Shown: positions 2,734-62,882, counted from the first letter of the stretch. The stretch is 64,000 nt of DNA from an uncultured Acidobacteriota bacterium (GCA_963724125.1 CAVRTJ010000009.1:19524-83523); one strand, 5' to 3'. Numbers and translations: made by a program. Notes: generated by a model not told the origin, from the sequence alone.

Positions 2734-3025
2734 GTGATTAGTGATCAAGTGATCGAGTGAAAAGGGCGATTTGGGATTTGGGATTTGAAAAACGGCTTAG
2801 GACGAGCCTTCGAAGGACGCCCCGCGACTCGATTGCTCAATACACCAGATCATCCGATCATTCTAATAAACCACAGAGCACACCGAGGTCACAGAGGCCT
2901 GCAGGCGCTGGTAAGTCAGAAATTGAAGGGTAAATGGGAAGAGGCACCACGATCACTGAGGAACCTTCGAAGGCCTCCCGTCTGCCGCAGTCGAATCCAA
3001 AATCCCAATTCCCAAATCCCCAATC
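2734..3025. repeat. Composite intergenic repeat element 1: tandem-repeat arms plus two CCTTCGAAGG cores
   Basis: GTGATCAA-type octamers 2734-2760, GATTTGG heptamers 2768-2787, cores 2807-2816 and 2964-2973, CACAGAG-type nonamers 2869-2897, inverted CCAAATC heptamers 2994-3025. Confidence 0.85.
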
Positions 3026-4063
3026 TTATCTTCAGTCCCCTCACCGTGAGCACGACCTTTCCGACGGTCTGCCGCTCCTGCATGCGGCGGTGGGCCTCGG
3101 CGGCCTTGTCGAGCGGCAGGGACAGCCCGACCCTCGGCTTGATCACGCCGGCCGCGCGCAGTTCCATGAGCACGCCGGCGGCCTCTCTGAGCAGGTCGGG
3201 CTTGTTTGCCACGTAGTAGAGGTTGAAGCCGCTCAGGCTCCGGTTCTTGTCGATCATGCCCAGGGGCGAAATGCCCAGCATGTGCCGCAACCGCCACAGT
3301 GCGCCGAGCCTGGCGATGGCCCCGGGCTTCACGGCGGACGCGGCCCCGAAGAGGACGTGCCGTCCGTAGGGCGCCAGAAGACGCCACGATTTTCTGAATA
3401 CCGGACCGCCCACCGAATCCATCACCACGTCCACGCCGCGGCCGCCGGTTTCTTCCAGGATGAACCTTTGCAAAGTCCTTCTCCCGGTAGAGAATGGGCC
3501 GCGCCGCGGGATACTCCTCCTTCACGACCGCGGCCTTGGAGACGCTGCCCACCGTCGCGTAAACGGCGGCCCCGAGGTTCTTCAGGAGCTGGAGGCAGGC
3601 GATGCCCACGCCGCCAGCCGCCGCGTGGATCAGCACGACGTCGTCCCGTCGGACGTGGGCGAGTTGGAAGAGCCCGTGGTAGGCCGTGAGGTACTGCACC
3701 GGGAAAGGCGGCGGCCTCCGGGAACGTCATGCCATCTGGGACCTTGAAGGCGTAAGCCGTGGGAACCGCGACCTTCTCTGCATAACCGCCGAAGGTGCAG
3801 AAAGCCATGACCCGGTCCCCCGCCGCGAACCCTTCCACGCCGTCCCCCAGGGCTTCGACCGTCCCGGCGACCTCGATGCCCGGCACGAAAGGAGGCTTGG
3901 GGGCAGCCTTGTAAATGCCGAGACGGGCCAGGACGTCCGCGAAGTTGACGCCCGCGGCCTTCACGGAGATGAGAATCTCTCCCTTCCCGGGTGCGGGATC
4001 CGGCCTCTCCGTCATCTCCAGGACGGAGACGTCGCCGTGCTTTTTCACGACCACAGCTTTCAT
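2916..4063 (-). CDS. NADPH:quinone oxidoreductase / VAT-1-like medium-chain dehydrogenase (frameshifts at ~3700 and ~3475)
   Basis: AAGVNFADVLARLG, PFVPGIEVAG, YLTAY, LIHAAAGGVG, GRGVDVVMDSVGG and AHRRMQERQTVGKVVL spread over three frames. The 3' end runs into repeat element 1. Confidence 0.85.
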
Positions 4064-4089
4064 GCCCCTTCCTCCTCAAGCCGAAGGCC

Positions 4090-4395
4090 TCACGGTAGTT
4101 TGATGACGGCTAAGACCGCGGCGGCCACGGCAGCCAGCAGCCCCCTTCTGATCCACTGCAGCCGCCCCGACCAGGCGCCTTCGGTAGGAACGCCCTTGTC
4201 GAGGGCGAAGAGAATGCACAGGGCGAGGAACATCCACTGGAGTATGCCCCCCCAGGGCGAAGGCAGGTGGGGACCCTCCCAGATCTGGTACGCGTACAGG
4301 AGCCTCTCGACCGCAATGTACACGCAGCCGGCGATCATCAGCACCGTCACGTAACAGAGCCTTCTGGCCACGTCCTCGCTCCACTTCCGCGCCAC
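4090..4395 (-). CDS. Small integral membrane protein (about 3 TM helices)
   Basis: 101-aa ORF, GTG start after GAGGGAGG RBS, three hydrophobic stretches, tight spacing with both neighbours. Confidence 0.6.
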   Translation of the reverse strand: MARKWSEDVARRLCYVTVLMIAGCVYIAVERLLYAYQIWEGPHLPSPWGGILQWMFLALCILFALDKGVPTEGAWSGRLQWIRRGLLAAVAAAVLAVIKLP

Positions 4396-4406
4396 GTGTT
4401 CCTCCC

Positions 4407-5621
4407 TCAGACGGCCGCCGGCCGCATTTTTCGCGCGAAAACCGGGCGCGCCAGTGTCTTGAGAAACTTCAGTCGTCCCACGTAAAGGAGCTTTCGCAGG
4501 CTCGCCGGGGCAAGGTACCGAGCGTCGTCCGGGTTCACGATGAGGCTCACTTCAATGTTGGGCGCCATGCCGACGGGAATGCCCTTCTTCATGCACGCCT
4601 CGAAGACACGCCTCATCACCACCACCATGTCTTCGTAGCGGGGTGAAGGGTGGTTCTCCATGGCCGTGCCCTTGATGGGCCTGAAGATGCAGACGGTGGG
4701 GAAGCAGCCGAGGTCCGTGATGAACTCGATGGCTGCGAGCGTATCCTCTATGGGCTCGAGGCCCGCAATGATCTCTCCCGAATTTCGTCCCTTGCCCATT
4801 TTCTTGGCGCAATGGGCCATGGCGTCGAAGAAAACGGACTGTCCGAGCGCCTGAGCCTTGCCGGGACAAACCTCGGCGAAGAACTCGGGATTCTGAAACT
4901 CGTAGCAGAAGGAAAAGTGGTCCACGCCGAGGTCGATCAAACGGTCGTAAAGACCGAGATCCCTGCTCGGCAGTACCTGCACGCCCACCAGGGCGCCCAC
5001 GCGTTCCTTGACGGCCTTAACGTAGGGTGCCACCGTCTCCAGGCCGCCGCCCGCCTGGTCACCCGAGTTGAAGTGGACGAAGGTCACCCCGCTCTCCGCC
5101 TTGGCGGCGAGCGCGGTCTCGACCACGTCCTCCACGGCCTTCTCCGCCTCTTCGGTCACGCCCACGTTCAGGCCCGTCGCACAGAACTTGCAGTTCATCG
5201 GAGGGCTCGCCGACCAGAACTGACAGGTGCGCCCGACGTAGATGCCGAGGTAGGTGCCCTGGAGAACGCCCACCTTGCTCATGAGCGTGCCACGGCTCGT
5301 CGCCCGTCCGTACCAGGCCGGATTCTGCGGGATTCCGACTGCGTAGCGGAGTGACGGCGGGTCGCGCTCGTCATGAACGTAATAGGCACCTCTATCCCGG
5401 ACGAGGCAGTATGGGGAATGCCGTGCGAACGACTCCTCCACGGGAACGTTCAGCCAGATCGTCTTCCCCTTTGCCGGGATGGTCAGTTCCAGTCCCGATC
5501 CGAGGCCCGCACGGACCTTTGCCAACAGTCTGCCGTCTACATCCAGCGAGCAACCGGGGGCTATCCGCAGGCCCTTGCAGAAGAGATCTATCTCCAGCTC
5601 CGCTGGATTCAAGGGTTTCAT
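4407..5621 (-). CDS. Radical SAM protein with non-canonical Cx10Cx2C motif (resembles the MSMEG_0568 / biotin-synthase-like group)
   Basis: RAGLGSG N-terminal motif, CQFWSASPPMNCKFC cluster motif, EVCPGKA, IIAGLEP, FRPIKGT. Confidence 0.8.
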   Translation of the reverse strand: MKPLNPAELEIDLFCKGLRIAPGCSLDVDGRLLAKVRAGLGSGLELTIPAKGKTIWLNVPVEESFARHSPYCLVRDRGAYYVHDERDPPSLRYAVGIPQNPAWYGRATSRGTLMSKVGVLQGTYLGIYVGRTCQFWSASPPMNCKFCATGLNVGVTEEAEKAVEDVVETALAAKAESGVTFVHFNSGDQAGGGLETVAPYVKAVKERVGALVGVQVLPSRDLGLYDRLIDLGVDHFSFCYEFQNPEFFAEVCPGKAQALGQSVFFDAMAHCAKKMGKGRNSGEIIAGLEPIEDTLAAIEFITDLGCFPTVCIFRPIKGTAMENHPSPRYEDMVVVMRRVFEACMKKGIPVGMAPNIEVSLIVNPDDARYLAPASLRKLLYVGRLKFLKTLARPVFARKMRPAAV

Positions 5622-5826
5622 CGGCCCTCCCTGTCCCCAAGCTTATGGGACTTTGCGTGGCGCCGCAAGAGTTCCTGCCCGGCGCCGGCGAAATCGGTTG
5701 ACCATCCCTCCTTCCAGGTGCTAAAGTCAGGACGAATTAGACGCATTTTCCAACGGGGAAAAGGGGACCATCGCGAGAAACGATTAAGCGACGAAAACAG
5801 TACCATCAAGGGAAAGGAGATAGGGT

Positions 5827-7338
5827 ATGACGAGACGTCTGCGTTTTGTCTGCACCCTCGTCGCGGTGTTGACTCTGCTCGTTTCAGGGTCCGCCATGGC
5901 GCAGGGCTTCAAAGACATTCAAAACCTCGTCGTCGAAAAGACGCTCCCGAACGGGCTGAAGGTGATCATTCTGCCGAGGCACAACGCCCCGGTAGTGTCC
6001 TTCGTCACCTATGCCGACGTGGGGGGGGTGAACGAGAACCAGAACGCCACGGGGCTTGCGCACATCTTCGAGCACATGGCCTTCAAGGGGACGACCACCA
6101 TCGGCACGAAAGACTACGCCAAGGAAAAGGCCGCCATGAAGAAGGTCGACGACGCTTTCACTGCTCTAAGGGCGGAACGGCTGCGCAGGCCCAAACCCGA
6201 CGAGGCCAGACTCAAGACCCTCGAGGCCGAGTTCAAGGCCGCCCAGGAGGAGGCCCAGAGGTACTCCAAGACGGGCGAGTTCGACGAGATCCTGGAGAAG
6301 GCGGGCGCGAAGGGCCTCAACGCCTTCACCTCTTTCGACCAAACCGTCTACCTATACTCTCTCCCGTCCAACAAGGTAGAACTCTGGGCCACCCTGGAGG
6401 CGGACCGCTTCACCCATCCCGTTCTGCGGGAGTTCTACAAGGAAAAGAACGTCATCATGGAGGAGAAGCGGATGGGCGAGAGCAGCGCCATCGGACGCCT
6501 GCTCGACGACTTCTTCCCCGTGGCCTTCAAGGCCTCCATGTACCGCTCCTACGTGATCGGACACATGAGCGATCTGCAGAGCATCACGCGACAGCAGGCC
6601 ATGGACTGGTTCAACAAATACTACCGGGCGAAGAACCTGACCATGGTCCTGGTGGGCGACGTAGACCCGAAAACGGTGCTGCCCGTAATCGAGAAGCACC
6701 TTGAAACGATTCCGGCCGGCACCAAGCCCGAAGGTCCCATCACGGTGGAACCGCCGCAGCGCGAGGAGAAGCGCATCATCATGGAAGACCCCTCGCAGCC
6801 CTTCCTGATCATCGCCTACCACAGGCCGGCCATCACCGATCCCGATGACGCGGTCTACACGGTGATTGCGGACGTCCTGGGCGGCGGGCGCTCCTCGCGC
6901 CTGTACACGTCCCTCGTGAAGGAGAAACAGCTGGCTCTGCAGGTCTACGCGGCACCGTCTCTCGAGGGGGAGAAGTTCCCCGGCCTCTGCGGAATCATCG
7001 CCGTGCCCAACAAGGGCAAGTCAAACGAGGCGTGCGAGAAGGCCATCTACGCTGAGATAGACCGCCTCAAAAACGAACCCGTCACCAAAGAGGAACTGGA
7101 AGGCGTGAAGGCCCGCGCCAAAATGCACTTTCTCAACAGCATCGATTCCAACACGGGTCTCGCCATCCAGCTCGCCATGGCCGAAAATCTGCAGGGCGAC
7201 TGGCACGCGGTTTTTACGCAGTTGGACAAGATCGACGCGGTAACGCCGGAGGACATCATGCGGGTCGCCAAGAAGACCTTCGTGCGTTCCAACCGTACCG
7301 TCGGCATGATCGAAACCACCAGCGAGAAAGCGGACTAG
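5827..7338 (+). CDS. M16 family zinc peptidase, catalytic subunit, secreted
   Basis: Signal peptide (SAMA-Q), TLPNGLKV, inverted zinc motif HIFEH, NAFTSFDQTVY, GGRSSRLY. Confidence 0.92.
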   Translation: MTRRLRFVCTLVAVLTLLVSGSAMAQGFKDIQNLVVEKTLPNGLKVIILPRHNAPVVSFVTYADVGGVNENQNATGLAHIFEHMAFKGTTTIGTKDYAKEKAAMKKVDDAFTALRAERLRRPKPDEARLKTLEAEFKAAQEEAQRYSKTGEFDEILEKAGAKGLNAFTSFDQTVYLYSLPSNKVELWATLEADRFTHPVLREFYKEKNVIMEEKRMGESSAIGRLLDDFFPVAFKASMYRSYVIGHMSDLQSITRQQAMDWFNKYYRAKNLTMVLVGDVDPKTVLPVIEKHLETIPAGTKPEGPITVEPPQREEKRIIMEDPSQPFLIIAYHRPAITDPDDAVYTVIADVLGGGRSSRLYTSLVKEKQLALQVYAAPSLEGEKFPGLCGIIAVPNKGKSNEACEKAIYAEIDRLKNEPVTKEELEGVKARAKMHFLNSIDSNTGLAIQLAMAENLQGDWHAVFTQLDKIDAVTPEDIMRVAKKTFVRSNRTVGMIETTSEKAD

Positions 7339-7348
7339 GAGGGGGACC

Positions 7349-9520
7349 ATGCGCAAGACCGTGATTAGAAACCTGATCACCGCCGCGGCCTGCCTGGCCG
7401 TGACGCTATCGATGACGTGGGCCGCCGCACCCTCCAGGGGAAAGAGGCCCTTCGAAGAACTCAAATACCCCAAACTCCACGAAATAACCATGCCGAAGGT
7501 GGACCGCGAGACGCTCCCCAACGGCATGAAGGTGATCTTCGTAGAAGACCACGAACTGCCAGTGGTCAGGATGAGGGCCATGGTGCGCGGCGGCAAGGTC
7601 GCCGAACCGGACGGAAAAACGGCACTGACAGCCCTCTTCGGGGTGGTTCAGCGCACGGGCGGGGTCAAGTCCATGGACGGCGACAAGGTGGACGAGTTCC
7701 TAGAAAGGATCGGGGCCTCCATCGAGACGAACGTGTCCGATGCTTACGGCACGGTTTCCGCCGAAATGCTCAAGGAGAACGTGGACCAGGTGCTCCCGCT
7801 CTACACGGAATTCCTCGAAGCGCCCGCCTTTTCCCAGGACAAGATCGACCTCGCCAAGAAGCACCTCTACAGCGCCATCTCGCGGCGCAACGACCAGCCC
7901 ATGGGCATCGGCCGCCGGGAGATCCTCAAGTTGATCTACGGCGCTTCGTCGCCCTACGCGCGTCAATACGAATATGACGATGTGGACAAGCTGACCCGCG
8001 ACGACCTTGTCGCGTTTCACGACACCTACTACCGGCCAGACGAGACCGTTCTCGCGGTCTGGGGCGACTTCGATACCGCAAGTATGAAGAAGAAGATCGC
8101 CGGCGCCTTCGGGACCTGGAAGGCCGAAGGGCCGAAGCCCGAGATCGCCGAGCCGTTCATCTTCCCGCCGGCGCCCTCCGTCAACTACGTCGAGAAGAAG
8201 GACGTGGCGCAGACCTTCATCTTCATGGGACACCTGGGCCTGCGTCTCGACGATCCCGACTACCCGGCCGTCAACGTGCTGTCCGAGATCCTGGGCGGCA
8301 GCATGTCCTCCAGGCTCTTCGTCCAGGTCAGAACCCTGAAGGGCCTTGCCTACGGAGCGGGCGGCTTCATGGTTCCCGCCTACGACCACCCCGGGGCCTT
8401 TTTCTTCTACACGTCCACCAAGCCTTCGACAACCGTCGAGGCGCTCCAGGCCATGCTTACCGAAATCGAGAAGATCAGGGAGGCGCCGGTTACGGAAGAG
8501 GAACTGGCCAAGGCCAAGGACGGGTACCTCAATACGTATGCCTTCGACTTCGACTCCTCGGACAAGATCGTCAACCGCCTTCTCGTCTACGACTTCTACG
8601 GGTACCCGTCGGATTTCAACACGAAACTGCGGGACGAGGTCGAGAAGGTCACCCGTGAGGACGTGCTCCGTGTCGCGAAGAAGGACCTCCGCCCCGACCG
8701 GCTGAGCATCCTGGCGATCGGCGACGCCGGGAAGTTCGACAAACCCCTTTCGACGGTCGGGAAGGTCAACGACATTGACATCACGATTCCCGAGCCGACC
8801 CCCAAGGTCACCATCCCCGCGGCCACCCCTGAATCGCTCAAGGCCGGCACGGACCTCCTCGTCCAGGCCGCGAAGGCCGCTGGCGAGCAGACCCTGAAGG
8901 GGCTCAAGGACCTGACCGTCAAGTCCACCACTACGCTCAAGACGCCGATGGGCGAGATGAGCCTCACGAGCAGCAGCGTCTTTGTTCTGCCGGACCGCCT
9001 CCACAGCGATGTGCAGACACCCATGGGAAAAATGACGCAGGTGCTGGACGGTGAGAAGGCCTGGATGGCGATGGGCCCGAAGGTCAGGGTGCTCCCGGCG
9101 TCCGCATCGTCCAAGATGCGCCGTCAGTTATACACAGAAGCCGGCTGCGTCCTGCTCCTGCAGAGGGCGTTGGACGGCAAGCTCGAAGGACAGGCCCTCG
9201 GCAAGACGACATTCGAGGGCAAGGACGCGGTTCAGGTGGTCGTGCGGCTCGACGACAAGCCCCTCCGCCTGTTCCTGTCGCCGGACGGCTCGTCCATCCT
9301 GGGCCTCAAGCAGCAGGCGACAACCCAGGAAGGACCGGCCGAAGTGACCACGGTTTACGGCACGTGGAAGGCTACCTCGGGCCTGACGCTGCCCACGGAA
9401 ACCACCGAGAAGGTCAAGGGCGAGGTCAAGGCCGCCTCGACCGTCACGAGCTATCAGATCAACGCCGGCTTCTCCGAGGATCTGTTCAAGCAGCCTTCGG
9501 ACCAGGCCGAGAAAAACTAG
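7349..9520 (+). CDS. M16 family peptidase partner subunit (no HxxEH) with a ~230-aa C-terminal beta-rich LolA-like extension
   Basis: Signal peptide, TLPNGMKV, LGGSMSSRLF, RTLKGLAYG; extension ends ...INAGFSEDLFKQP. Confidence 0.85.
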   Translation: MRKTVIRNLITAAACLAVTLSMTWAAAPSRGKRPFEELKYPKLHEITMPKVDRETLPNGMKVIFVEDHELPVVRMRAMVRGGKVAEPDGKTALTALFGVVQRTGGVKSMDGDKVDEFLERIGASIETNVSDAYGTVSAEMLKENVDQVLPLYTEFLEAPAFSQDKIDLAKKHLYSAISRRNDQPMGIGRREILKLIYGASSPYARQYEYDDVDKLTRDDLVAFHDTYYRPDETVLAVWGDFDTASMKKKIAGAFGTWKAEGPKPEIAEPFIFPPAPSVNYVEKKDVAQTFIFMGHLGLRLDDPDYPAVNVLSEILGGSMSSRLFVQVRTLKGLAYGAGGFMVPAYDHPGAFFFYTSTKPSTTVEALQAMLTEIEKIREAPVTEEELAKAKDGYLNTYAFDFDSSDKIVNRLLVYDFYGYPSDFNTKLRDEVEKVTREDVLRVAKKDLRPDRLSILAIGDAGKFDKPLSTVGKVNDIDITIPEPTPKVTIPAATPESLKAGTDLLVQAAKAAGEQTLKGLKDLTVKSTTTLKTPMGEMSLTSSSVFVLPDRLHSDVQTPMGKMTQVLDGEKAWMAMGPKVRVLPASASSKMRRQLYTEAGCVLLLQRALDGKLEGQALGKTTFEGKDAVQVVVRLDDKPLRLFLSPDGSSILGLKQQATTQEGPAEVTTVYGTWKATSGLTLPTETTEKVKGEVKAASTVTSYQINAGFSEDLFKQPSDQAEKN

Positions 9521-9551
9521 CACCGGAGCCTGCCGGATCCGGCAACCGGCC

Positions 9552-9581
9552 GGGGAGCGGGACGATCGCCCCGCTCCCCTT
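9552..9581 (+). terminator. Hairpin, probable terminator after the M16 operon
   Basis: GGGGAGCGGG / CCCGCTCCCC stem with only a short T tail. Confidence 0.5.
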
Positions 9582-9662
9582 GACCGGGCCGGATCGCACC
9601 TCCGGCTCGCGCCCGGTGAGAATCGTGTTACTCTGTATGCTTGGTTCAGGGACGAAGGCACT

Positions 9663-10329
9663 ATGAGCATTGTGATCCTGTGCAGCGCCCAGGGCGTGGA
9701 TGGCCCACTCGGACATCCGATCCTCAAGAGAGAGGACATCGAGCTTTCAGTCTTCGATGAACTGCCCAGAGCTTTTATCGAACTCAAATCCAAGCGAGTC
9801 GACCTTCTGATCCTCGAGGAGGGGGGAAGCGTCGAGGAAACGCTGGCCCTGGTTCGCCGCGTGGGAGACGTGACCGCCAATGTCGACATTAAAATCATCT
9901 GCCTGTGGAAAACACGCACCCCCTGCCGACCTGCCGGAGTCTCTCGCTCTGTCCCTCCCCTTCCCGCCTCCCGCGGACGAGTTCGAGAAGGCCATAACCG
10001 AGGCCCTCGCCGTAGAGTCCAGGAAGGCCAGGCGCGTCCTGCTGCGGATGGGCCTTTCCATCCGTACGGGCGAGCAGAGTTTTCTGTGTTCCACGGTGGA
10101 TGTAAGCCGGACCGGTTTTCTCGTCGAATGCAATCGCACACTCCAGTTGAACGCCATTTATGACGTCAGGTTCATGGGCCTGCCCGGACGTCCGCTGCCC
10201 CAGTTCCGTGCCCGCGTGGTGAGGGAGAAGCCTCCCAAGGCCAAACTCAGGCTCCGTTATTACGCCTGTGCCTTCGACGGCATGCCGCCGGAGGACGTCG
10301 AGCGGCTCGCCGAGGCCCTGGATCTCTGA
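9663..10329 (+). CDS. Degenerate receiver domain fused to a PilZ domain (frameshift at ~9910)
   Basis: REC-like N-terminus (RVDLLILEE); second frame carries PilZ motifs RKARR and DVSRTG. Confidence 0.7.
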
Positions 10330-10532
10330 GAAGCCCAGGCGGAAGCCGGACCGTCATCAATTCAGCTTTTGAGCAGCAATCAGGATCGTGCCGACGGGCC
10401 CGGTTCGTCTCGCCGTCTGGCGCAATCCCGCCTTCGTTGCTACAATCTTCTTGAATTGGCTTCACATGGCGCGATCCGGTCAACGACCCCGCGGGACCGC
10501 ACCTTGAGGAACAGGGGAAAGGGGGAAAGAAC

Positions 10533-15672: not shown

Positions 15673-16100
15673 GGATTTGGGATTTGGGAATTGGGATTGC
15701 GGATTGAAATGCGGCAACCGGCGCGTCTTCGAAGAAACTGCCCATGACGTGATCACTAGATCACTCGGTCACTTTTTGAAAGGCTGAAAGGCTAGGGCTA
15801 AAGGAAAAGACGGCAGACAGAAGGCCTTCGAAGACCGGGCCCCTGCGGTGTGGTAAATGAGAGCCAATTCTTACCCCTGTCCTCGCTCCCTCCCTGTCCA
15901 GACCAAAACTCCGCGTTGGCTCGCCTTCTGGATGGTGTTCAAGTGGTTTCGTGTATGCCCGGCCCTACGACCCTCGGGGCCACCCTGCGCAGCTTTCACC
16001 TTCTTCATTCGGCCCCTCTCACCGTCTCACCGTCTCACTGTTAATTCCCGAAATTGTCACTGCGCGCTCTGTGGTTTGTCCGCAATTCCAAATCCGACAT
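15673..16100. repeat. Composite intergenic repeat element 2
   Basis: GATTTGG arm 15673-15706, core TCTTCGAAGA 15726-15735, inverted GATCACT arm 15749-15773, AAGGCT arm 15779-15804, core 15825-15834, TCTCACCG x3 16017-16039, GCTCTGTGGTTT 16066-16077. Confidence 0.85.
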
Positions 16101-21048: not shown

Positions 21049-21179
21049 AAGGGCTAAGGGCTAAGGGCCAAGGGCCAAAAGCTAAAGGAAAGAAATAAGG
21101 GCGGCTTGGGACAGGCCTTCGAAGGCCATCCGTTTATCGGCCCTGCTTTAGCCCTTAGCCTTTTGGCCTTAGGCTTTGG
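21049..21179. repeat. Symmetric intergenic repeat element 3
   Basis: AAGGGCT heptamers 21049-21088, perfect 14-bp palindrome GGCCTTCGAAGGCC 21114-21127, inverted AGCCCTT heptamers 21146-21179. Confidence 0.9.
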
Positions 21180-43195: not shown

Positions 43196-43196
43196 T

Positions 43197-54903: not shown

Positions 54904-56251
54904 ATGAAGCACATTCTACTGATCGACGATGAACCGGCCGTTCGATTCGGAATAGGCAAATATTTGGAGAGTGAAGGCTTTCTGGTTTCGGAGGCTGCCT
55001 GCCTGCGTGAAGCGCGGGAGATTCTGAACCGTCATGATTTCGGTGCTATTCTCTTGGACGTGCGGCTCCCGGACGGCGATGGGCTTGAATTCCTGAAGGA
55101 AATCAGAGCCGTTGACACAACCGTCCCCGTGATTCTGATCACGGGCCACGGCACGATAGCTATGGCCGTCGACGCCATGCGCCACGGCGCAGACCAGTTC
55201 CTTACAAAACCGATCGACCTGCGGGAATTGGAAATCTTCCTCACAAAGTCCATGCAGATCGGGTCTCTCCGGAAGGAGAACCGCGCGCTCAAGGAGAGGC
55301 CGTCCGTCATCCAGCCGTACCTAGGAGAGAGCGCCGCCATGAGGCGGATTTTTCCACTTCTTGAAGCTGCGTACCGGCACAAGACGCCCGTGCTGTTACA
55401 GGGTGAAACGGGGACCGGAAAGGGCCTGATCGCCCGCCTCATCCACGAACGGGGCACGGAGCAGACCGGTCCTTTCGTCGAACTGAACTGCGCGGGTCTC
55501 AAAGGTGAATTCCTTGAAAGCGAGCTGTTCGGACACGCCAAGGGCGCTTTCACCGGGGCCGTCCAGGCGAAGGAAGGCCTGCTGGAACGGGCGCACAAGG
55601 GGACGCTGTTTCTCGACGAGATAGGCGACATGGACGTCACCGTTCAGAGCAAGTTCCTCAAGGTCCTCGAGGAAAAACGATTTCGGCCCCTGGGCCGGGT
55701 GGACGAGAGAGTTTCGGACTTCCGTCTCATCAGCGCGACACACCAGGATCTCCAGAAATTCATCGAGGACAAGCAGTTCAGGCAGGATCTCTATTTCCGC
55801 ATCAACACCCTGATCATCGTGCTTCCGCCGCTCCGGGATCGACTGGAGGACCTGGAGAACGTACTTGTCCACATGTTCCAGTTCATCACCAGCGGGCGTG
55901 AAGCACCCGAGCTGAGTCCCGAGATCCTGGATCTGTTGCGCGCCTATCATTGGCCGGGCAATCTTCGGGAATTGCAGAACGTGCTGGAGCGGGCCTGGAT
56001 TCTCTCGGACGGCAAAGAACTGAAGCGGGAGCATTTCGCAGCGCTTCTGCCCGATGCGGTCCGAGAGGACATCGGATTCTTCCGCGGCCCCCATGATGGA
56101 CCTCACGACGGCGGAGCGGCAGCACATAATCCAGATCCTCCGCAGGACGAGCGGCAACGTGCCCGAAGCTGCCAAGATACTGGGCGTGTCGCGGGCCACC
56201 CTGTACCGAAAGATCTCTCAGCACGATATTGAGCTCGACAAGACCCGGTAG
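54904..56251 (+). CDS. Sigma54-dependent response regulator (frameshift at ~56070 before the Fis HTH)
   Basis: LIDDE, LDVRLPDGDG, GETGTGKG, GAFTGA, FRQDLYFRI, WPGNLREL, AAKILGVSRATLYRK. Confidence 0.92.
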
Positions 56252-56391
56252 AGTCTCATCACCCGGATGCAGGCGCTCGTTCCGTCCTGAATGTGAGACG
56301 ACTTGCACGTCGTGGTAAATGCTATAATCTCTAGAGTGTCTTATCTGGGTGAGGTTGATCCATGGCAGGCCGTTCGGGCATGGGACTTGCA
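56252..56391 (+). promoter_or_regulatory. sigma54 promoter with tandem candidate upstream activator sites
   Basis: GGGCATGGGACTTGCA at 56376-56391 (GG-N10-GC); CGTCCTGAATGTGAGACG at 56283-56300; AGTCTCA half-site at 56252. Confidence 0.7.
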
Positions 56392-56421
56392 TTTAGCTGA
56401 TCGGACTGTTAAGGAGGCACC

Positions 56422-56817
56422 ATGAGTTACAAGGTCTTGATAGTAGACGATGAAATGGCAACCGCCTTCGGCCTCAAGGCCCTGCTCGAGGGTCCGGACG
56501 TCGAAGTCCTCACCGCGGTCAACCCCGTCGCAGCCAAAAGAATTCTGCGTTCGGAGCAAATAAGCGTCATGCTGTCCGACATCAGGCTCTCCGGAACCCT
56601 GGACGCGGAAGGCCTGGATTTGCTCCAGTTCGCGAAGGAGAAGTGCCCGGACACGAAGGTCATCCTGATGACGGGATACGGCGATCCCGCGATCATGCAG
56701 AAGGCCTTCAACATGGGGGCTTCCTATTACTTCGAGAAGCCGGTCGAACTAAACGTCTTAAGTGCCGCCATTCACAACCTTGGCGTGCCCAATCAACTTT
56801 CGTCAGAAGAATCATGA
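56422..56817 (+). CDS. Single-domain response regulator
   Basis: LIVDDE, SDIRL, MTGY, EKP; AAGGAGG RBS. Confidence 0.9.
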   Translation: MSYKVLIVDDEMATAFGLKALLEGPDVEVLTAVNPVAAKRILRSEQISVMLSDIRLSGTLDAEGLDLLQFAKEKCPDTKVILMTGYGDPAIMQKAFNMGASYYFEKPVELNVLSAAIHNLGVPNQLSSEES

Positions 56818-57662
56818 CTCCAGATTCAGAGGTGCGGGACCTCCTGCTTCGGGGATTCGTCTCGACGGCCTTTCAGCCTATCATCCACCTGAATTCGGGT
56901 AAGGTAATGGGTTACGAATCCCTCATGAGGGGACCTGCCGACACGATCCTCTCGAATCCGGGATACGTCTTCGGCCCCACGAGCCAGGTGTCCACGAATC
57001 TCATCCGCGAACTCGACGTAGCCTGCGTCGCGGCGTCGTTCCGCTCCGGGCGTCTCCTCGTTCCTTTCGGACAGCTCTTCGTCAATATCCACATATCGAC
57101 GCTCATGCACATCAGGCAGTGGCAGGACCACTTCCGGAAGCTCCTCGACACCAGCGGCATCCCCCCGCAGGCCGTGGTGATCGAGATATCCGAACGATCC
57201 ACGACGCATCGGCCGAGGGTCCTGTCCCGCATACTCCGGCTCCTTAGGCGAGAGGGCTTTCGCTTCGCTCTCGACGACTTCGGACTGGCTTACTCGGGAC
57301 TGCAGCACCTCTACTGGTTGGAACCCGAATACGTCAAGCTGGACAGGGCGTTCATTCTCGGGATACAGCGGTCGGCCCGCAAACAGGCGCTCGTCGCCGG
57401 CGTGACGGCCATGTGCCAGAAGCTCGGCAGCCAGGTTATTGCGGAAGGCGTGGAGAATACGGAAGAACTGCTGACGCTAATGGCCCTGGACATCCCCATG
57501 GCCCAGGGATACCACTTCGGTAGGCCCCAGGCCGCCCTTTTCTGGACGTCGGAGCGCGCTACTGAACACGGTTCTCAAGCCGTGGTACAAGGCGAGCAGG
57601 TTGCTGAATCTCGAGGACACGCCACGGGACGAAGAGACACGCCCCGATCTATCGGCGGTTGA
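56814..57662 (+). CDS. Stand-alone EAL-domain c-di-GMP phosphodiesterase
   Basis: FQPI, YESLMR, FVN, EISE, DDFGLAYS, VKLD, AEGVE, QGY; ATGA overlap with the REC gene. Confidence 0.9.
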   Translation: MTPDSEVRDLLLRGFVSTAFQPIIHLNSGKVMGYESLMRGPADTILSNPGYVFGPTSQVSTNLIRELDVACVAASFRSGRLLVPFGQLFVNIHISTLMHIRQWQDHFRKLLDTSGIPPQAVVIEISERSTTHRPRVLSRILRLLRREGFRFALDDFGLAYSGLQHLYWLEPEYVKLDRAFILGIQRSARKQALVAGVTAMCQKLGSQVIAEGVENTEELLTLMALDIPMAQGYHFGRPQAALFWTSERATEHGSQAVVQGEQVAESRGHATGRRDTPRSIGG

Positions 57663-57786
57663 CACCAGCTCCGACCCCTCCTGAAGAACGCGGTCCAAGC
57701 GGAGGCTTCCTCGGTCCGGTCAACCCTCTCACCTCCACCCCGTTCGATCACGCATTGCAATCCGGCCGCAGGGAGTAGCTCGGACC

Positions 57787-59128
57787 TCATGCATTCAGCA
57801 GGTTCTTGGCCATCTCGACGACGCCCGCCTCCATGTCAGGTCCCAGGGAATTCTTCACGGCGAAGAGCTGGAAATACAGCAGTTCGTTGAGGTCCTTGAC
57901 GAGGACGGCTTCGCGGTCGCCGGGTAGCCGAGCGAGTCTTTCCAGCACGGCATCCTCGGCCAGGACGCCCTCGGACGTGAAGTCCAGGCCGGCCAGCACG
58001 GACCCCCCGGGTTCGAGTCCCTTGAAGAAGGCGCCGAGGATCACGTCGACCTTGCCGCCGACCTCTACGGAAAGGGCCTGGTAGATTGTGGAGAACACGC
58101 TGTTGTACCGTTCGAGCCTAGCCATCAAGGATCGGTGTTCGGCCTCGTCGAGAGTCGGCGCCGGAGAGGGCCCGGCTGCCCCACGGACTTCACTTCTGAC
58201 TGGTTTGAGGAGCCCCGCCGCGATCAGCGAGACGATGGCCTTCTTCCCCTCCATATCCCCGACCTTGGCCTTGGCGATGACCTCTTCCATCGCCCGGCCG
58301 TCCGCCACCTGGGCGAGGACCTGCTCTTCTTCGAAGGAGAGCCTCGTGGATGCCGTCACGTCTTCCGCAATTTCGAGAACCGTGCCGGAATCCGGAACGC
58401 GGTCCTTGAGCCTCGCCCACTCGTCGACCCTCCGGGTGGCCTCCATAACGTAATTTGTGGTCGTCATGGGCAAAGCCAGCCTGAACGGGGCCGCGACCGT
58501 ACCGTTCCTGAAGCTGAATCGCCCCGAATCGAAGGTGAACACGTGGAAGACAGCGCTTTCCACCAAGCGTATGCGCTGGTCGAGGAGTTCCTTGCCGGCT
58601 AATCCCGTTGCCTCGCTGAGAACGGTGAGCGCATCCGCGCCATCACTCAGCCTTCCGAGGTTCTGTACCAGATCCTGCTGAGTGATGAACTGCTTGGCGA
58701 GCAGATGCGCGGCCAGCCCTGAACGCGGATCGTCGGATGCGGCGTAGACCAGGTTACCGTTGTCGAAGAAAAATCCCCACCGCGTCTCTCCCTCCAGGAA
58801 CAGGACGCCCGTCTTTTTGCTGGCCGACAAGAAGAGGAACACGTCGCTGAGCGAAAGGACGGAAAGATCGCCTTCGAACTGGACCGAATCGGACTCGCTT
58901 CGGTCGAAATGGGCGTTTCAGGACGGTTCGCATAGATTCGCTCTCATGGAAGCTCTTGAGCAAGTCCGGTATGGAGCCGGATTCCATGTCGACGTACACG
59001 GGAGACAGGACTACGCACCCCGAGCGCACGTGGACCACCACCTCCCTGGCCTTGCCGAAGACCTCTTCCGCAAGGTCCTTGTGTAAGACGATGGAACCAT
59101 CCGGCTGGACGGGAATCGCTTTTCGCAC
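57787..59128 (-). CDS. DUF4388 domain protein with an AbrB-like N-terminal extension (frameshift at ~58910)
   Basis: FEGDLSVLSLSDVFLFL..KKTGVL, YVMEATRRVDEW, ADGRAMEEV; C-terminus similar to the 16156-17259 protein. Confidence 0.75.
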
Positions 59129-59257
59129 CGTGGCCTCCTTGGGTATGCTAAACGGCTGGAGGAACGGCTGTCAATTCGCCACACCGGCTGGAGACTCCGT
59201 CCAAGCTTGCCTGTGCACGCGACATCGTTTACGATGGCCCCATCAGACGAGGTGACC

Positions 59258-60470
59258 ATGCTGACCGATATACGCCTCAAGGACGAGAAGACCATCGTAG
59301 GCCTCATGTCGGGAACGTCGGCGGACGGCATCGACGCGGTGCTCGTGAGAATGCAGGGCACCGGCGTTGGCGCGACAATTACCGTAAGGGCGCAGGAAAC
59401 CCTCAAATATACGCGCTGCCGTACGAGCGAAAATTCTGCGGTGCCAGGGACCGTCCACGACGGCGCGGGACATCACCCTGCTCGATACTTACCTCGGCGA
59501 GCTGTTCGCCCACGCGGTGGTCCATGTTTGCCGGTCGGCAGGCGTCTCGACGGCAGAAGTCGATCTTGTCGGCTCCCATGGCCAGACCGTCTACCACCAT
59601 CCCCATCCGGAGAACATGCCCGGCTACGCTGTGACCGGAAGTCTCCAGGTCGGCAACGCCGCCGTTATCGCCGAAAGGACCGGCATAACCGTCATCTCCG
59701 ACTTTCGATCGAGAGACATGGCGGCGGGCGGGCAAGGCGCTCCGCTCGCGCCGATCCTCGACTACACCCTGTATCACCACGCGTCGAGGGGACGCATCAT
59801 CATCAACCTCGGCGGGATCGCCAACATGACGACTCTGCCCGCCGGTGCGGAACAGGATGGCGTCCACGCCCTCGATACGGGCCCCGGGAACTGCCTCATC
59901 GACATGGCCATGGAGAAGTTCACGGACGGCCGAATGCAGTATGACAAAGACGGCCTTTGGGCTTCCGCAGGGACAGTGGATGACGCCTTGCTCAAACGGC
60001 TTCTCGACCATCCATTCCTGACCGAGAAACCTCCTAAATCCTTGGACAAGGACACATTCGGTCCCGCTTTCCTGGGCGGCCTCCTGACTGAATTCTCCGA
60101 TAGACAGCCCAAGGACATAGTGGCGACGTTAACGGCCTTTACGGCCAAGAGCCTCACGGCGGCGATCATGGAGTTCGGCCTCCAGACGGCCCGGTATGAA
60201 GAGATCATTGTCTCCGGAGGCGGGATTCATAATCCCGCCATCATGGAAGGCCTCCGCGCCGGCTTCCCCAAGCTGATCCTGTCCACCACGGACGATTACG
60301 GACTGCCGGGCAAGGCCAAGGAAGCCGTGCTCATGGCCTTTCTGGCCAACGAGGCCGTCATGGGATCCCCGGGCAACATCCCCTCCGCGACCGGAGCGGG
60401 CCGCCCGGTCGTGCTCGGTTCCATTACGCCGGGGCAACGCGTTCTAGAGCTTCTTCGCAAGAAGAAATGA
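59258..60470 (+). CDS. anmK: Anhydro-N-acetylmuramic acid kinase (frameshift at ~59420)
   Basis: GLMSGTSADGID, GSHGQT, DFRSRDMAAGGQGAPL, NLGGIAN, DTGPGN, ATGA. Confidence 0.95.
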
Positions 60471-60580
60471 GTGTTGCACTGGAATTCGTCGGTCGTTCAC
60501 GGGGCGCCCGATCGTCAGCGCAAGGCATGGCGACATGGACGGGCCGTCGGCTCCAGGCAGTTCAAGCGACTCCGTCATGA

Positions 60581-62126
60581 TTGCCCACTTTGACGCGGAA
60601 TCCGCTACTTCTCCGGGACACATTCGTTACGCACTTGTGCCGTGCGGCCTGTATTGTCATTCTGGTCGTTCTGGTCTCCTGCGGACGCGCTCCGCGCAAG
60701 GCGGACCTCGTCGTCGGAGTGGAGCAGGAGCCGGCCAGCCTCGATCCGCGGCTCGGCTCCGACGTCGCCGCAGACCGCGTCTTCCGACTTCTTTACAGGG
60801 GACTGTTCAGGATAGGCCCAGACTTTGAACCCGTTCCCGATCTCGTACAGCACTGGAGGCGGTTGGACCCCGTCACGTACCGCTTCACGCTCAAGGCCGG
60901 CATTCGCTTCTGCGACGGCAGAAAGCTCACGGCGAGCGACGTCGCCTTCACTCTTGAGTCCATCCTCTCCGGTGATGTCCCATCCTACAGAAAGGGCGAC
61001 CTCGACCGGATCAAACGTATCCGGGTGGTCGACCCAACCACCCTGGAGATAACCCTCAGGGAACCTTATGCGGCTTTTCTGTCCAACTTCAACGTGGGCA
61101 TCGTTCCGGCGGGAACGAGGTGCGGCGCGTTTCCACCGGTCGGGTGCGGACCTTACGCATTGAGAAAGTGGATCCACGGCCAGTGGCTCGTCTTCGCCCG
61201 CAATGCTTACTACCGTCCCGGGCCGCGTTCGCCGGTCGATAGCCTTCAAAATCATCCCCGACCCCGTCGTCCGCGCCCTGGAGATGCGGCGCGGCAGCGT
61301 GGATCTCGTCGTCAACGACCTTCCCCCGGACAGCCTGAACTACTTCCGGGAAAAGGGATACCTGCTGATCAGAAGGCCTGGGGCCAACTACGCGTATGTC
61401 GGCCTCAACTGCGCGCGGCCGCCTCTCGACCGGAAGATCGTGCGGCAGGCCCTCGCCTGCGCCATCGACAGGCGGGCCATCCTTAAGAACGTCTTCAGGG
61501 GATTCGGCCGTCCGGCTACCGGCCTCCTGCCGCCTGGCCACTGGGCCTACAACGGAGACGTTCGAAACTTTACCTACGACCCCGACAAGGCACGGGCTCT
61601 CCTCGATTCCGCGGGCCTCGAGCCGGACACTCGGGGCGTGCGATTCCGCCTGACCTACAAGACCTCCAACAACAAGGTCTCGCGCCAGATTGCAACAGCC
61701 GTCGCCGAGTACCTGGACCAGGTAGGTGTTCGGACGACCATAAGCTGGCTCGAGTGGGGCACGTTCTACACCGACGTGAAGAGCGGCAACTTCGACGCCT
61801 ACGCTCTAAACTGGGTGGGCATAACGGATCCAGACGGGTTCAGGTTGCGGTTTGCGAGTTCCTGTTTTCCGCCCGAGGGATTCAATCGGGGGCATTACTC
61901 CAATCCGGAGGTGGACGCGCTCGTGGAGGAAGGCGCACGGGAGCAGGACATGGCGCGCAGACGTGCCATTTACGGCAAGGTGCAGGCCCTGCTGGCCGAT
62001 AACGTCCCCTACATCAGCCTCTGGTACCCGGACAACGTGTGCGTCGCCCAACGCGACGTGCACGGCATCGTCCTTCCTCCCGACGGCGACTTCTCTTTCC
62101 TCGTCGACGTGTATCGGGGGAAGTGA
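60581..62126 (+). CDS. ABC peptide/nickel transporter substrate-binding lipoprotein, family 5 (start uncertain; frameshift at ~61230)
   Basis: Lipobox VLVSC, ASLDPR, RFCDGRKLTASDVAFT, VRQALACAIDR, YSNPEVD. Confidence 0.9.
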
Positions 62127-62240
62127 TCCAGTGATCAAGTGACCGAGATGTGGGCGGGCCTTCGAAGGGACCGGGAGTAGGTGAGTTTGGGAGTAGGTGA
62201 GTCCGGCGCAGGCTTGCCTTCGAAGATTCGACCGCCGACG
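62121..62240. repeat. Composite intergenic repeat element 4, left part
   Basis: AGTGATC octamers 62121-62147, core 62159-62168, GGGAGTAGGTGAGT x2 at 62173-62202, core 62217-62226. Confidence 0.85.
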
Positions 62241-62275
62241 GCCGACCACCCCGCACGCTTTAACGCGGTCATTGC

Positions 62276-62520
62276 TTAGGAAGTTCACCGCCGAGAAAGA
62301 ATGTTGCGTTTAGATGGCACAAGGGGTCATCAGCGGTGGCTTTCGATGCGAAGCATCGGAAGCTGCGTTCCGGCGCGAGGGGGCCAGCCCGCGCGAAGGA
62401 CAAGGCGGTCGCACCGCAGTCGTGCTTGTGTACGTCGAGGATGCGGCCGCCGCAGGCCGACAAAGCGGATGGTCCGCTCCCCTCGGCGCTTCCCCGGAAG
62501 GTGGGGGGAGTGCTTCCTAA
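62276..62520. mobile_element. Putative MITE/REP-like non-autonomous element (245 bp)
   Basis: Terminal inverted repeats TTAGGAAG / CTTCCTAA; internal imperfect palindrome; no credible ORF. Confidence 0.45.
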
Positions 62521-62541
62521 CCCGCAGACACATTGGCTCAA

Positions 62542-62673
62542 GGCCGAGGTGCGCCCAGCGCCGATCGGCCATGACCGGGGCAGGCGGGAAGCATCTCAGC
62601 GGCCTGCCCCCAGCGTGCTTCACGACCTGCCACGCCGTGGCCGATCGCAGGGTGCCGCAGGCACCCCTCGGCC
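62542..62673. ncRNA. Candidate structured RNA or palindromic element
   Basis: Four perfect 7-10 bp stems plus a possible pseudoknot; no known family recognised. Confidence 0.35.
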
Positions 62674-62802
62674 GTGCGCGGACATCTCCCACTTGTTTGT
62701 GCGACTTTAATCCCAACTGAAGAGAGGGGATCTCATGGGTATGGCGAGAACTGCATCAAAGGGCATCGGCGAAGCAATCGACAGATTTTCGGCACCCTCG
62801 GG

Positions 62803-62882
62803 CTTTTCCTATAGCCCTTCGGCCTTAGCCCTTGGAAAAAGTCACTACCTCACTTCTTCCCCTTCTTTCAAATCCCAAATCG
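62803..62882. repeat. Composite intergenic repeat element 4, right arms
   Basis: Inverted AGCCCTT heptamers, TCACTAC/TCACTTC units and CAAATCCCAAATC. Confidence 0.7.

Follow-up and report, generated by a model that had tools for sequence, protein, structure and literature searches.

The palindromic octamer CTTCGAAG, hereafter called the core, ends short non-coding repeat units of an uncultured Acidobacteriota bacterium that follow one grammar; its two sides are independent of each other, it is restricted to one clade, and evolutionary breakpoints coincide with it. The explanation proposed here, for and against which the chances are judged to be even, is a clade-specific family of non-coding modular repeats in which modules come in, drop out and are swapped at the palindrome, which serves as their joint. 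A segment bounded by cores would be added at an existing core and leave a core on either side, and the older arms would be pushed outward, later to decay or be deleted. A candidate trans-acting cut-and-join activity on the symmetric core, either a site-specific recombinase or a nuclease together with a ligase, would be responsible, rather than general recombination.

The window, i.e. the whole 64-kb stretch that was analysed, contained 11 matches to the core, compared with 1.75 ± 1.27 expected from 100 dinucleotide shuffles, none of which reached 11. A sequence-only reading had placed seven cores in four intergenic regions; the sites are real, but each starts one base further right than had been given (2808, 2965, 15727, 15826, 21117, 62160 and 62218), and four more copies (7450, 13171, 45729 and 58329) all lie within ORFs according to a crude gene caller. 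The longer pattern CGGC-N11-CTTCGAAG had five matches in the window, with 0.05 expected, and its CGGC was found exactly where it had been reported (2793, 15712, 15811 and 21102 on the plus strand, 2987 on the minus strand), as was the copy at 62204, shifted by one base. The short tandem repeats described beside the cores were confirmed with TRF as 11 arrays; arrays with periods of 7-8 and 2.1-4.6 copies adjoin all seven listed cores. Copies of the four loci with more than about 90 % identity were not found elsewhere, and locus 3 was bridged by independent contigs from four sequencing runs. The loci consist of the following features.

2703-2724: terminator hairpin of the gene upstream of locus 1, separate from the cores (terminator scan).
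2740-2760, plus strand: GTGATCA-type tandem arm of period 8, beyond the terminator of the upstream gene (TRF, terminator scan).
2768-2787, plus strand: GATTTGG tandem arm of the left unit of locus 1, 2.9 copies (TRF, sequence).
2793-2815, plus strand: linker and core of the left unit of locus 1, CGGC-N11-CTTCGAAG (pattern match).
2816-2964, no strand assigned: core-to-core segment of locus 1, 149 nt, with degenerate arms of other families; a homologous segment is present in the sister species G003.
2965-2987, minus strand: linker and core of the right unit of locus 1, CGGC-N11-CTTCGAAG (pattern match).
2994-3025, minus strand: GATTTGG arm of the right unit of locus 1, 4.6 copies, AATCCCA on the plus strand (TRF).
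15673-15706, plus strand: GATTTGG arm of locus 2, kept in G003 (TRF, ortholog comparison).
15712-15734, plus strand: core 1 of locus 2 with its linker (pattern match).
15751-15773, minus strand: GTGATCA-type arm of locus 2, GATCACTA on the plus strand, at which the approximately 330 nt missing from the G003 ortholog begin (TRF, ortholog comparison).
15777-15806, plus strand: AAGGCT-type arm of the second unit of locus 2, TRF array at 15777-15793 (sequence, TRF).
15811-15833, plus strand: core 2 of locus 2 with its linker (pattern match).
21049-21075, plus strand: AAGGGCT arm of locus 3, 3.9 copies; a metagenome strain of 97 % identity lacks one of the 7-nt copies (TRF, strain comparison).
21102-21124, plus strand: linker and core of locus 3, the core retained in G001, G003 and metagenome contig L118 (pattern match, comparisons).
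21146-21177, minus strand: mirror AAGGGCT arm of locus 3; G003 has GATTTGG-family arms on both sides instead (TRF, ortholog comparison).
62121-62142, plus strand: GTGATC arm of locus 4, immediately past the stop of the gene that ends at 62126 (sequence, TRF).
62160-62167, no strand assigned: core 1 of locus 4, with a short G-rich linker and CGGC absent at -15.
62175-62202, plus strand: GTGAGTAGG-type arm of locus 4, a second unit joined head-to-tail (sequence, TRF).
62218-62225, no strand assigned: core 2 of locus 4, with CGGC one base nearer than usual.
62229-62247, no strand assigned: short CGACCGC tandem array of locus 4, past core 2 (TRF).

Genome-wide, the core was found 345 times in 3.43 Mb, scattered across most contigs and not in one array, and ranked 8th by abundance among the 256 palindromic octamers in a genome of 63 % G+C. 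The genome-wide scan bore out intergenic enrichment, with 236 of 344 scorable sites in the approximately 22 % of the genome that is non-coding according to our own crude gene caller. CGGC stood exactly 15 nt upstream of the core in 115 strand-readings, and 101 of the 109 CGGC-bearing core sites were intergenic. A period-7/8 array was present within 75 nt of 115 of 236 intergenic cores and 3 of 108 genic cores, compared with 34 of 619 intergenic and 9 of 2381 genic random control positions. The purine-rich left and pyrimidine-rich right sides seen in the window were likewise recovered: a purine fraction above 0.5 in the left 60 nt and below 0.5 in the right 60 nt was found at 131 of 236 intergenic cores vs 18 of 108 genic ones.

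The conserved entity is the half-site, not the dyad, and descent is by half-elements, each about 55-90 nt long and consisting of a tandem 7-8-mer arm, a linker and a palindromic end. The arm is a degenerate tandem array of a 7-8-nt word, of which there are at least ten families; in some units a REP-like palindrome, GTAG...CTAC, stands in its place. The linker is specific to the family, being either A-rich sequence with CGGC and 11 G-rich nt or a short G-rich stretch, and (C)CTTCGAAG(G) forms the end of the unit. Neighbouring units meet head-to-head, with the palindrome common to both, or head-to-tail, with a copy each. Clustered without supervision, 472 halves fell into families with 41, 14, 10, 9, 7, 7 and so on members, and all clustered families terminate in G-rich sequence and a C ahead of the core. 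A core-to-core unit type of 80-90 nt recurs at at least five loci, and a structured repeat of approximately 350 nt also ends in or abuts the same octamer.

An imperfect 38-bp dyad with a mirror CG on the far side of the core had been proposed from the window. The four places named do have the mirror CG, but genome-wide it accompanies 29 of 115 oriented units (25 %; most other offsets gave roughly 3-17 %), a second 25 % peak lies four bases closer to the core, and the complete CGGC...GCCG dyad occurs at only six sites. Symmetric copies, CGGC-N11-CTTCGAAG-N11-GCCG, are found for example at C4:19560 and C31:17050, and at most cores the symmetry of the flanks is limited to G/C composition. A fixed dyad or hairpin was not upheld, nor was identity with a REP stem-loop, complementarity across the core (5.75 of 18 vs 5.98 ± 0.15) and minimum free energy (-12.45 vs -12.82 kcal/mol) being no better than in re-paired halves. 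Mirror arms belonged to one family at 10 of 236 sites (14.0 ± 3.7 expected), and the outer arms of multi-core runs did so in 2 of 30 (3.8 expected). Partners across the core are essentially random, and intergenic regions become mosaics.

Breakpoints at the core were seen within the genome and between genomes, all of them assembled from short metagenome reads, a kind of assembly prone to errors in repeats. Among 41 half pairs of high identity (at least 93 % over at least 45 nt, reaching the core), 13 had partner halves without detectable similarity, and the copies at C32:1587 and C32:5207 were 100 % identical over 70 nt, between the core and a second junction hairpin, but divergent past both ends. 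For the genome containing the window (G000) and G003, which are approximately 81 % identical, 11 anchored loci, partly picked for an intact core in G003, were classified by eye from alignments. Two were the same on both sides, seven kept one side and differed on the other starting within about 12 nt of the core, one (locus 3 of the window) had both arms replaced and the core kept, and one was a clean indel, in which the core, 88-nt unit and core at C17:38880-38968 of G000 correspond to a single core in G003. Local-alignment scores, a noisy numeric check, gave clear one-sided asymmetry at four loci and weak asymmetry at others. A deletion between direct repeats of 8 bp would account for the C17 indel equally well; G001 reads N there and gives no polarity.

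Turnover is slow, since seven of nine readable loci were unaltered between G000 and G001 (approximately 95 % identity). Locus 2 of the window has a wholly different filling in the 97 % identical strain (contig L118), where the left flank is only 87 % identical and the right flank 97 %, suggesting that the filling may have been imported by homologous recombination and not made in place. Orthologous cores decay one by one (TTTGAA, CTCCGAAG, CTTCGAGG) and the family consensus persists, the pattern of a propagating family and not of sites each kept by selection. There was no sign of a recent burst, the nearest-neighbour identity being 80-90 % for 151 of 250 halves with a match of at least 50 nt, duplicated contigs and a tandem tRNA array left out.

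In sister genomes and paralogs the core thus bounds the gain, loss and exchange of modules, as would be expected if recombination or insertion at this site were driven in trans, the possibility raised by the sequence-only reading; a recombinase that tracks the core did not emerge. A passive origin is conceivable, if somewhat improbable: all unit families would descend from one palindrome-ended ancestor, mosaics would arise by duplication, slippage, illegitimate recombination and ectopic gene conversion, and breakpoints would pile up at the core and linker without a dedicated enzyme because these, with at most about 26 nt shared, are the longest shared homology. Consistent with this, the copies have diverged and are old, the families checked yielded no enzyme candidate, strains differ in arm copy number by slippage of one 7-nt unit, the identical 70-nt tract between two shared junction motifs resembles a gene-conversion tract, and slippage suffices for precise loss between two direct cores. 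However, one-sided arm replacement with both flanking genes conserved requires a second crossover in non-homologous DNA, and RecA-type recombination needs roughly 20-25 nt of identity, more than the 8-10 nt of the palindrome alone. Common descent also explains poorly why very different unit families and the 350-nt structured repeat share the same 8-mer end or junction.

A more specific form of module exchange is put forward tentatively, namely a gene-less cassette system that has the palindrome as its crossover or cut site and in which non-coding modules of 50-350 nt move in and out, in either orientation and at any CTTCGAAG, via a putative trans-acting enzyme. The modules would be the heptamer-arm units, the REP-like palindrome and the approximately 350-nt structured RNA-like repeat, and the intergenic DNA of the clade would be continually re-tiled.

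Relative to genes, oriented units followed a stop codon in sense 64 times and preceded a start in antisense 41 times (crude gene calls), when 47 % of the sides of intergenic regions of at least 100 bp are gene 3' ends. Units were enriched in convergent regions (27 of 87 vs 254 of 1491 in the background) and depleted, again with crude gene calls, in divergent ones (13 of 87 vs 339 of 1491). The appearance of the elements is that of tolerated DNA, selfish or neutral, with a preference for gene 3' sides. It is unlikely that they are RNA-level 3' UTR elements, transcribed behind genes as processing, stability or G-quadruplex modules, with the palindrome as the overlap of convergent transcripts. 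Such a role would accord with the bias behind stops and in convergent regions, with the four G3 tracts of several arm families and with the strand rule given for G-rich heptamer repeats in the available part of PMC4692102, but the bias is equally expected of tolerated insertions, two of the four window loci are located between divergent genes, cores decay at orthologous sites, and neither selection for a hairpin across the core, a U-tract nor an Rfam match was found. An intrinsic terminator was rejected, the sole terminator-like site in 2600-3100 being that at 2703-2724 and not the cores.

The hundreds of strongly intergenic copies of a palindromic 8-10-mer with G-rich/C-rich flanks could also suggest an array of binding sites, in which a dimeric nucleoid-associated or regulatory protein recognises CCTTCGAAGG and the arms shape local DNA structure; this is considered very unlikely. 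TTCGAA is a common type II recognition site and a link to methylation or restriction is conceivable, but it is not avoided in the genome, and decayed cores show no excess of CpG transitions. Orthologous cores are often mutated in one species, the L-type context has 69 intact cores vs about 40 one-off variants, the sites are depleted in the divergent regions that hold promoters, and the breakpoints at the core would be left unexplained.

No recombinase or transposase tracking the core distribution was found from counts of PF01797, PF00589 and PF05635 in 25-41 relatives. The suggested co-occurrence with tyrosine recombinases or Y1 transposases was not borne out: PF00589 counts in the four species of the genus were 5, 4, 4 and 6, with no excess where the core is present, and PF01797 (Y1 transposase) was found in 34 of 41 genomes, including G002 and most core-less relatives. 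That the units are an ordinary REP/REPIN family, moved by a RAYT transposase, is extremely unlikely and already largely refuted, although the repeats are short, many and intergenic, favour convergent regions, and share the genome with Y1 transposase genes and a distinct palindromic repeat, GTAG...CTAC, often found next to units. No cores flank the Y1 genes at C35, which have inverted repeats of their own; most copies of the units are not stem-loops and show no clear GTAG tag, and there is neither an orientation bias with GC skew (63:52) nor a cluster of identical master copies.

The heptamer tracts that the sequence-only reading linked with four-helix-bundle and GxxExxY genes do occur here, arms of the same families as those of the units bracketing all four PF05635 genes and the GxxExxY gene of the genome, but the nearest core is 1164-6939 nt from these genes, and most genera of the family have PF05635 genes, while the core is confined to one clade. 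Among 19 genes bracketed by cores there was no four-helix-bundle gene, and the 15 with a Pfam match all belonged to common enzyme, transport or signalling families (UvrB, Dxs, amidotransferase, kinase and others). The idea that the cores are empty cassette sites was thus abandoned.

The core is restricted to three of the four species of one Thermoanaerobaculia genus, CGGC-N11-CTTCGAAG occurring 115, 79 and 97 times in these, 5 times in the fourth and 0-18 times in 37 other genomes. Genera g3, g4 and g5, from the same family, have GATTTGG arrays without the core, and by this distribution the arms are older and more widespread than the core. Cyanobacterial STRR heptamers are a comparable class of tandem heptamers.

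The BIMEs of enterobacteria are mosaics built around true REP stem-loops. Like the acidobacterial units they are intergenic, lie behind genes and combine a small motif vocabulary in alternating orientation, but the motif shared here is a stemless junction palindrome and the variable parts are tandem arrays. In integrons, attC is an imperfect site of 60-140 bp, and cassettes, each an ORF with its attC, are arrayed and acted on by an integrase in trans. The exchange between one site and site-insert-site (C17) and inserts of unrelated content with only the site in common are integron-like, whereas the gene-less inserts, chromosome-wide dispersal and perfect 8-bp palindromic core are not, and no integrase tracks the core. 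An integron cassette array was rejected on the absence of a PF00589 excess, the common families of core-flanked genes and the dispersal of the cores. The geometry of a tyrosine-recombinase core site, two inverted arms of 11-13 bp around a 6-8-bp crossover, fits the few symmetric copies.

REPs are defined, in the text available from PMC3733652, as imperfect palindromes of 20-40 nt that form a stem-loop, with an unpaired GTAG or CGTC tag at one end. The conserved tetranucleotide of the units is CGGC, and in some copies (uncounted) it is part of GACGGC, the complement of which contains CGTC. As far as REP/REPIN-RAYT systems are described in the parts consulted of PMC3116915 and PMC3337134, they resemble the units in being non-autonomous, vertically persistent intergenic repeats with common head-to-head dimers; unlike them, the units have neither the defining stem-loop nor a repeat-flanked, co-distributed Y1 gene, both of which were tested.

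The arms belong to a known class of intergenic heptamer repeats, so that the claim of an undescribed system holds for the core and its grammar, to which the newness is limited. The available portion of Rehm et al. 2015 (PMC4692102) describes intergenic G-rich heptameric repeats, GGGAATC of Xanthomonas and GGGGAYT of Nostoc, with the G-rich strand after stops, the C-rich strand before starts and few copies between divergent genes. Both marks of the class given there, tandem 7-nt units over-represented in non-coding DNA and the strand rule, were found in the acidobacterial units. The likeness extends to approximately four tandem 7-nt words with many G3 tracts, intergenic excess, frequent convergent inverted pairs, a G-rich strand that follows stops and strain-variable copy number. 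In that portion of the paper there are one or a few words per genome and a conserved junction motif is not described, whereas here at least ten word families are tied by their linkers to one 8-mer palindrome, and, unlike the repeats described there, the acidobacterial units have randomly assorting partners on either side of it.

The palindromic octamer CTTCGAAG, hereafter called the core, occurs 11 times in the window, where 1.75 occurrences would be expected. Seven of the 11 are intergenic, in four regions where they adjoin tandem arrays with a period of 7 or 8, and the remaining four are within called ORFs. At five of the seven intergenic cores, CGGC precedes the C of the core by exactly 15 nt (0.05 expected), and the coordinates which the sequence-only reading gave for cores and CGGC were correct within one base. 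The intergenic cores are:

Locus 1: window 2808 and 2965
Locus 2: window 15727 and 15826
Locus 3: window 21117
Locus 4: window 62160 and 62218

The source assembly (G000; 3.43 Mb, 39 contigs, 62.8 % G+C; window at C9:19524-83523), whose close relatives aligning at 80-97 % identity are uncultured Thermoanaerobaculia or Acidobacteriota, contains 345 cores, ranking the palindrome eighth by abundance among the 256 palindromic octamers. Genes were called with our own crude codon-usage caller (78 % coding), by which 236 of the 344 scorable cores are intergenic, as are 101 of 109 CGGC-bearing sites; the supposed intergenic preference was thus borne out. So was the purine-rich left and pyrimidine-rich right flank, present at 131 of 236 intergenic cores compared with 18 of 108 genic ones. 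The proposed 38-bp dyad did not hold, the mirror CG being opposite only 29 of 115 units and the full CGGC...GCCG arrangement occurring at 6 sites in G000.

A single grammar describes all copies in G000: a tandem arm, a linker and (C)CTTCGAAG(G). The arm words are GATTTGG, AAGGGCT/AAGGCCG, GGCGGAA, GGGTAAA, GTGATCA, GTGAGTAGG, GTGAAGG-TTAAGAG, CACAGAG-like words, GGGAGGA and GTGTTTA, and the linker is either an A-rich stretch followed by CGGC and 11 G-rich nt or a short G-rich stretch. The same families emerged when 472 halves were clustered without supervision by shared k-mers (sizes 41, 14, 10, 9, 7, 7 and so on). The arm slot is alternatively filled by a REP-like palindrome bracketed by GTAG...CTAC, which has two internal hairpins and often replaces the arm beside CGGC-N11-core. 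Examples in G000 are:

C7:3903-3950, GTAG...CTAC REP-like element
C18:2845-2895, GTAG...CTAC REP-like element
C24:28660-28710, GTAG...CTAC REP-like element

A variant of this context (19 copies) has CGTTGTAG at the core position, running directly into the element. Four further cores, outside the repeat family, are found at C35:109006-109681, where each of four tandem 225-nt repeats closes with the 3' part of a tRNA-like sequence (T-arm plus CCA, minus strand), adjoining a small hairpin and CTTCGAAG.

Several known kinds of element were considered for the core and rejected. The 18-nt sides of the core do not form a hairpin or cruciform, pairing at 5.75 of 18 positions compared with 5.98 for randomly re-paired sides, with minimum free energies of -12.45 and -12.82, respectively. 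A palindromic origin of the arm pairs was likewise dismissed: mirror arms of the same family are present at 10 of 236 sites (14.0 ± 3.7 expected), which is no enrichment and if anything a depletion, and the outer arms of multi-core runs are of the same family in 2 of 30 (3.8 expected). The cores were not called as terminators, and locus 1 has a separate terminator directly behind the gene ending at 2678:

Window 2703-2724, canonical intrinsic terminator, 9-bp G+C stem then TTTTCTTTT, upstream of the repeat units

The window has no Rfam match at the gathering threshold or at E ≤ 5. Measured against the REP definition in PMC3733652, the units lack a stem and do not flank a Y1 gene, and their conserved tetranucleotide is CGGC in place of a GTAG tag. 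Decay of a methylated CpG was rejected, one-off core variants being distributed over positions (CTCCGAAG 5, CTTCGGAG 5, CTTCGTAG 5, CTTCGCAG 4, CCTCGAAG 4, CTTTGAAG 3); CTTCAAAG is absent from these counts, with one example copy seen. Single-strand transposition of the IS200/IS605 type would be expected to leave a replication-strand bias, and none was seen, 63 units being concordant and 52 discordant with the local GC-skew sign, which on contigs is a rough proxy for the replication strand.

The motif CGGC-N11-CTTCGAAG is abundant in G000 (115) and in two other species of the genus, G001 (79) and G003 (97). In the fourth species, G002 (2.3 Mb), the count is 5, and it ranges over 0-18 in 37 further genomes from the family, order, class and phylum. 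GATTTGG arrays are present in three other genera of the family (g3, g4 and g5), where the arms meet without a CTTCGAAG core; the arms are thus the older and more widespread feature, to which the core was added in one clade. Unexpectedly for a match across phyla, a Rhodobacteraceae MAG has an exact 18-mer of the commonest core-plus-linker, inside a perfect palindrome that follows stop codons on 10 or more contigs and is itself followed by other small hairpins, with no heptamer arms. We take this to be convergence or an unrelated REP. Contigs with the palindrome are:

L014, L018, L024, L030, L034, L035, L037, L042, L049 and L055, Rhodobacteraceae MAG
L023 and L051, Roseicyclus and Paracoccaceae MAGs, same 18-mer

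None of the four window loci has a copy of more than about 90 % identity elsewhere, and nearest-neighbour identities of halves are mostly 80-90 % outside duplicated contigs and a tandem tRNA array. The copies are old, and the identities of the G000 halves give no sign of a recent burst. Locus 1 was found in G003 with both cores mutated, and locus 3 is shared with G001, with G003 and with a metagenome contig of 97 % identity, the single contig retrieved with the locus 3 flank from the metagenome collection. Contigs of four DNA runs bridge locus 3. These comparisons, all between short-read MAGs, indicate that core-bearing loci are inherited, yet that their content changes, and does so at the core.

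Eleven anchored loci, chosen in part because their core is intact in G003, were classified by eye between G000 and G003. The breakpoints which the sequence-only reading had anticipated at the core were found: at seven of the 11, one side retains its arm, linker and core, and the other, starting no more than about 12 nt from the core, belongs to a different family. Both sides are alike at two loci. Locus 3 has an AAGGGCT-type pair in G000 and G001 and a GATTTGG-type pair around the same core in G003, and at C17:38880-38968 G000 has a core, an 88-nt unit and a second core where G003 has one core. G001 reads N across the C17 indel and across locus 1 and therefore could not polarise either. By local alignment scores the asymmetry is clear at four loci and noisy at the others, because the families themselves give background similarity. 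Within G000, 41 half pairs are of high identity, and in 13 of them no similarity remains past the core. Two loci on one contig, 3.6 kb from each other, share 70 nt at 100 % identity in inverted orientation and differ beyond both ends:

C32:1517-1594 and C32:5207-5284, identical tract with the core at one end and the first half of a GCGCC-N4-GGCGC hairpin at the other

Its appearance is that of a recent copy or a conversion tract, with a junction motif at each boundary; the second, GCGCC-N4-GGCGC, occurs 90 times, compared with 42 for the reversed control. Elsewhere on the contig, C32:9560-10290 has about 750 nt more than L040:3036-3239 of G003, between a GTGATC arm and a junction hairpin; at the start of the extra stretch is a GATTTGG unit with its core decayed to CGTCGAAG, and the stretch contains an ORF of up to 184 amino acids.

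Between G000 and G001 (about 95 % identity), nine loci could be read: seven show no change, one is altered on a single side, and in one a 15-nt stretch that includes the core is duplicated. Arm copy number shifts by one 7-nt unit between strains, and no ortholog of C37:130900-133300 exists in G001 or G003. The filling of locus 2 differs between all three of G000, G003 and the metagenome contig L118 of a 97 %-identical strain; the left flank of L118 is only 87 % identical, so its filling may have been imported by recombination. Contig joints at 15693-15809 in four DNA runs have a short side of 21-34 letters and are uninformative either way, since they most likely stem from other repeat copies.

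A multi-copy repeat of about 330-360 nt is found beside locus 4, and in the 97 %-identical strain also at locus 2, where G000 lacks it. Copies in G000 include:

Window 62345-62705, plus strand
C37:123494-123854
C11:2457-2819
C5:184316-184631
C31:161629-161951
C17:74827-75151
and others

There are at least 17 matches in G000, at least 17 in G001, 8 in G003 and none in G002; genus g3 and G014 (genus g4) contain diverged first halves. High conservation extends over about 370 columns of the alignment, and RNAalifold predicted 99 pairs, 25 with compensatory changes. The repeat has no Rfam match and its overlying ORFs no Pfam hit; possible identities are a structured RNA not yet described or a mobile element. 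One subtype, with at least four copies, starts 15-17 nt after a core.

The simplest account is that the half-element is the inherited unit and that segments bounded by cores enter, leave or are swapped at the palindrome, which serves as their joint. A symmetric site of crossover or cutting would give units in either orientation, inserts flanked by the core on both sides, random partners, and unrelated modules, including the structured repeat, with only this end in common. The pattern itself is what the data show; a dedicated enzyme may produce it. The chief competing account is passive recombination, acting where the shared homology is longest. The suggested association with recombinases or transposases failed: Y1 transposases (PF01797) and tyrosine recombinases (PF00589) show no co-distribution with the core, and none of those compared has a distribution fitting it. 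Three tandem ORFs of about 307-325 amino acids with a Y1 domain, each with its own inverted repeats, lie at C35:47292-52543 and resemble the TIR-flanked acidobacterial Y1 transposases of PMC3733652. The distribution of four-helix-bundle genes (PF05635) does not follow the core either, and the idea of empty cassette sites fell away, as four-helix-bundle and GxxExxY genes have the same kinds of arm with the nearest core 1.1-6.9 kb off. Genes bracketed by paired cores match common enzyme, transport and signalling families (15 of 19 with Pfam hits), with no PF05635 among the 19. A role at the RNA level in 3' regions has some support in the crude gene calls, by which 64 units are sense behind stops compared with 41 antisense before starts (47 % background) and convergent regions are enriched in units, but it leaves the breakpoints at the core unexplained.

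The arms belong to the published class of intergenic G-rich heptamer repeats, as characterized in PMC4692102. No description of the core turned up among the papers listed on heptanucleotide and intergenic tandem repeats, GxxExxY, 23S intervening sequences and REP/REPIN/RAYT/BIME, and those listed for the motif itself appeared unrelated by title and abstract; the supplementary alignments of Geobacter heptanucleotide elements belonging to PMC2700814 could hold a comparable junction motif. New here are the palindromic joint common to the units, the half-element as the unit, the restriction of the core to a clade relative to the arms, and the coincidence of evolutionary breakpoints with the core. 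Many array types have the same short palindromic end, and differences between sister genomes begin there, so that what was a vague repeat class now yields a concrete hypothesis, open to testing, of modules joined at a defined site. Should an enzyme drive it, the system would be site-specific, of a new kind, and directed at non-coding DNA; otherwise the locus illustrates cleanly, in nature, how short shared homology structures repeat turnover. Heptamer repeats between genes are also on record from cyanobacteria, Xanthomonas, Geobacter and Beggiatoaceae. The polymorphism between one site and two sites is like that of integron cassettes, although here there are no genes, array or integrase, and the mosaic build of the units recalls BIMEs.
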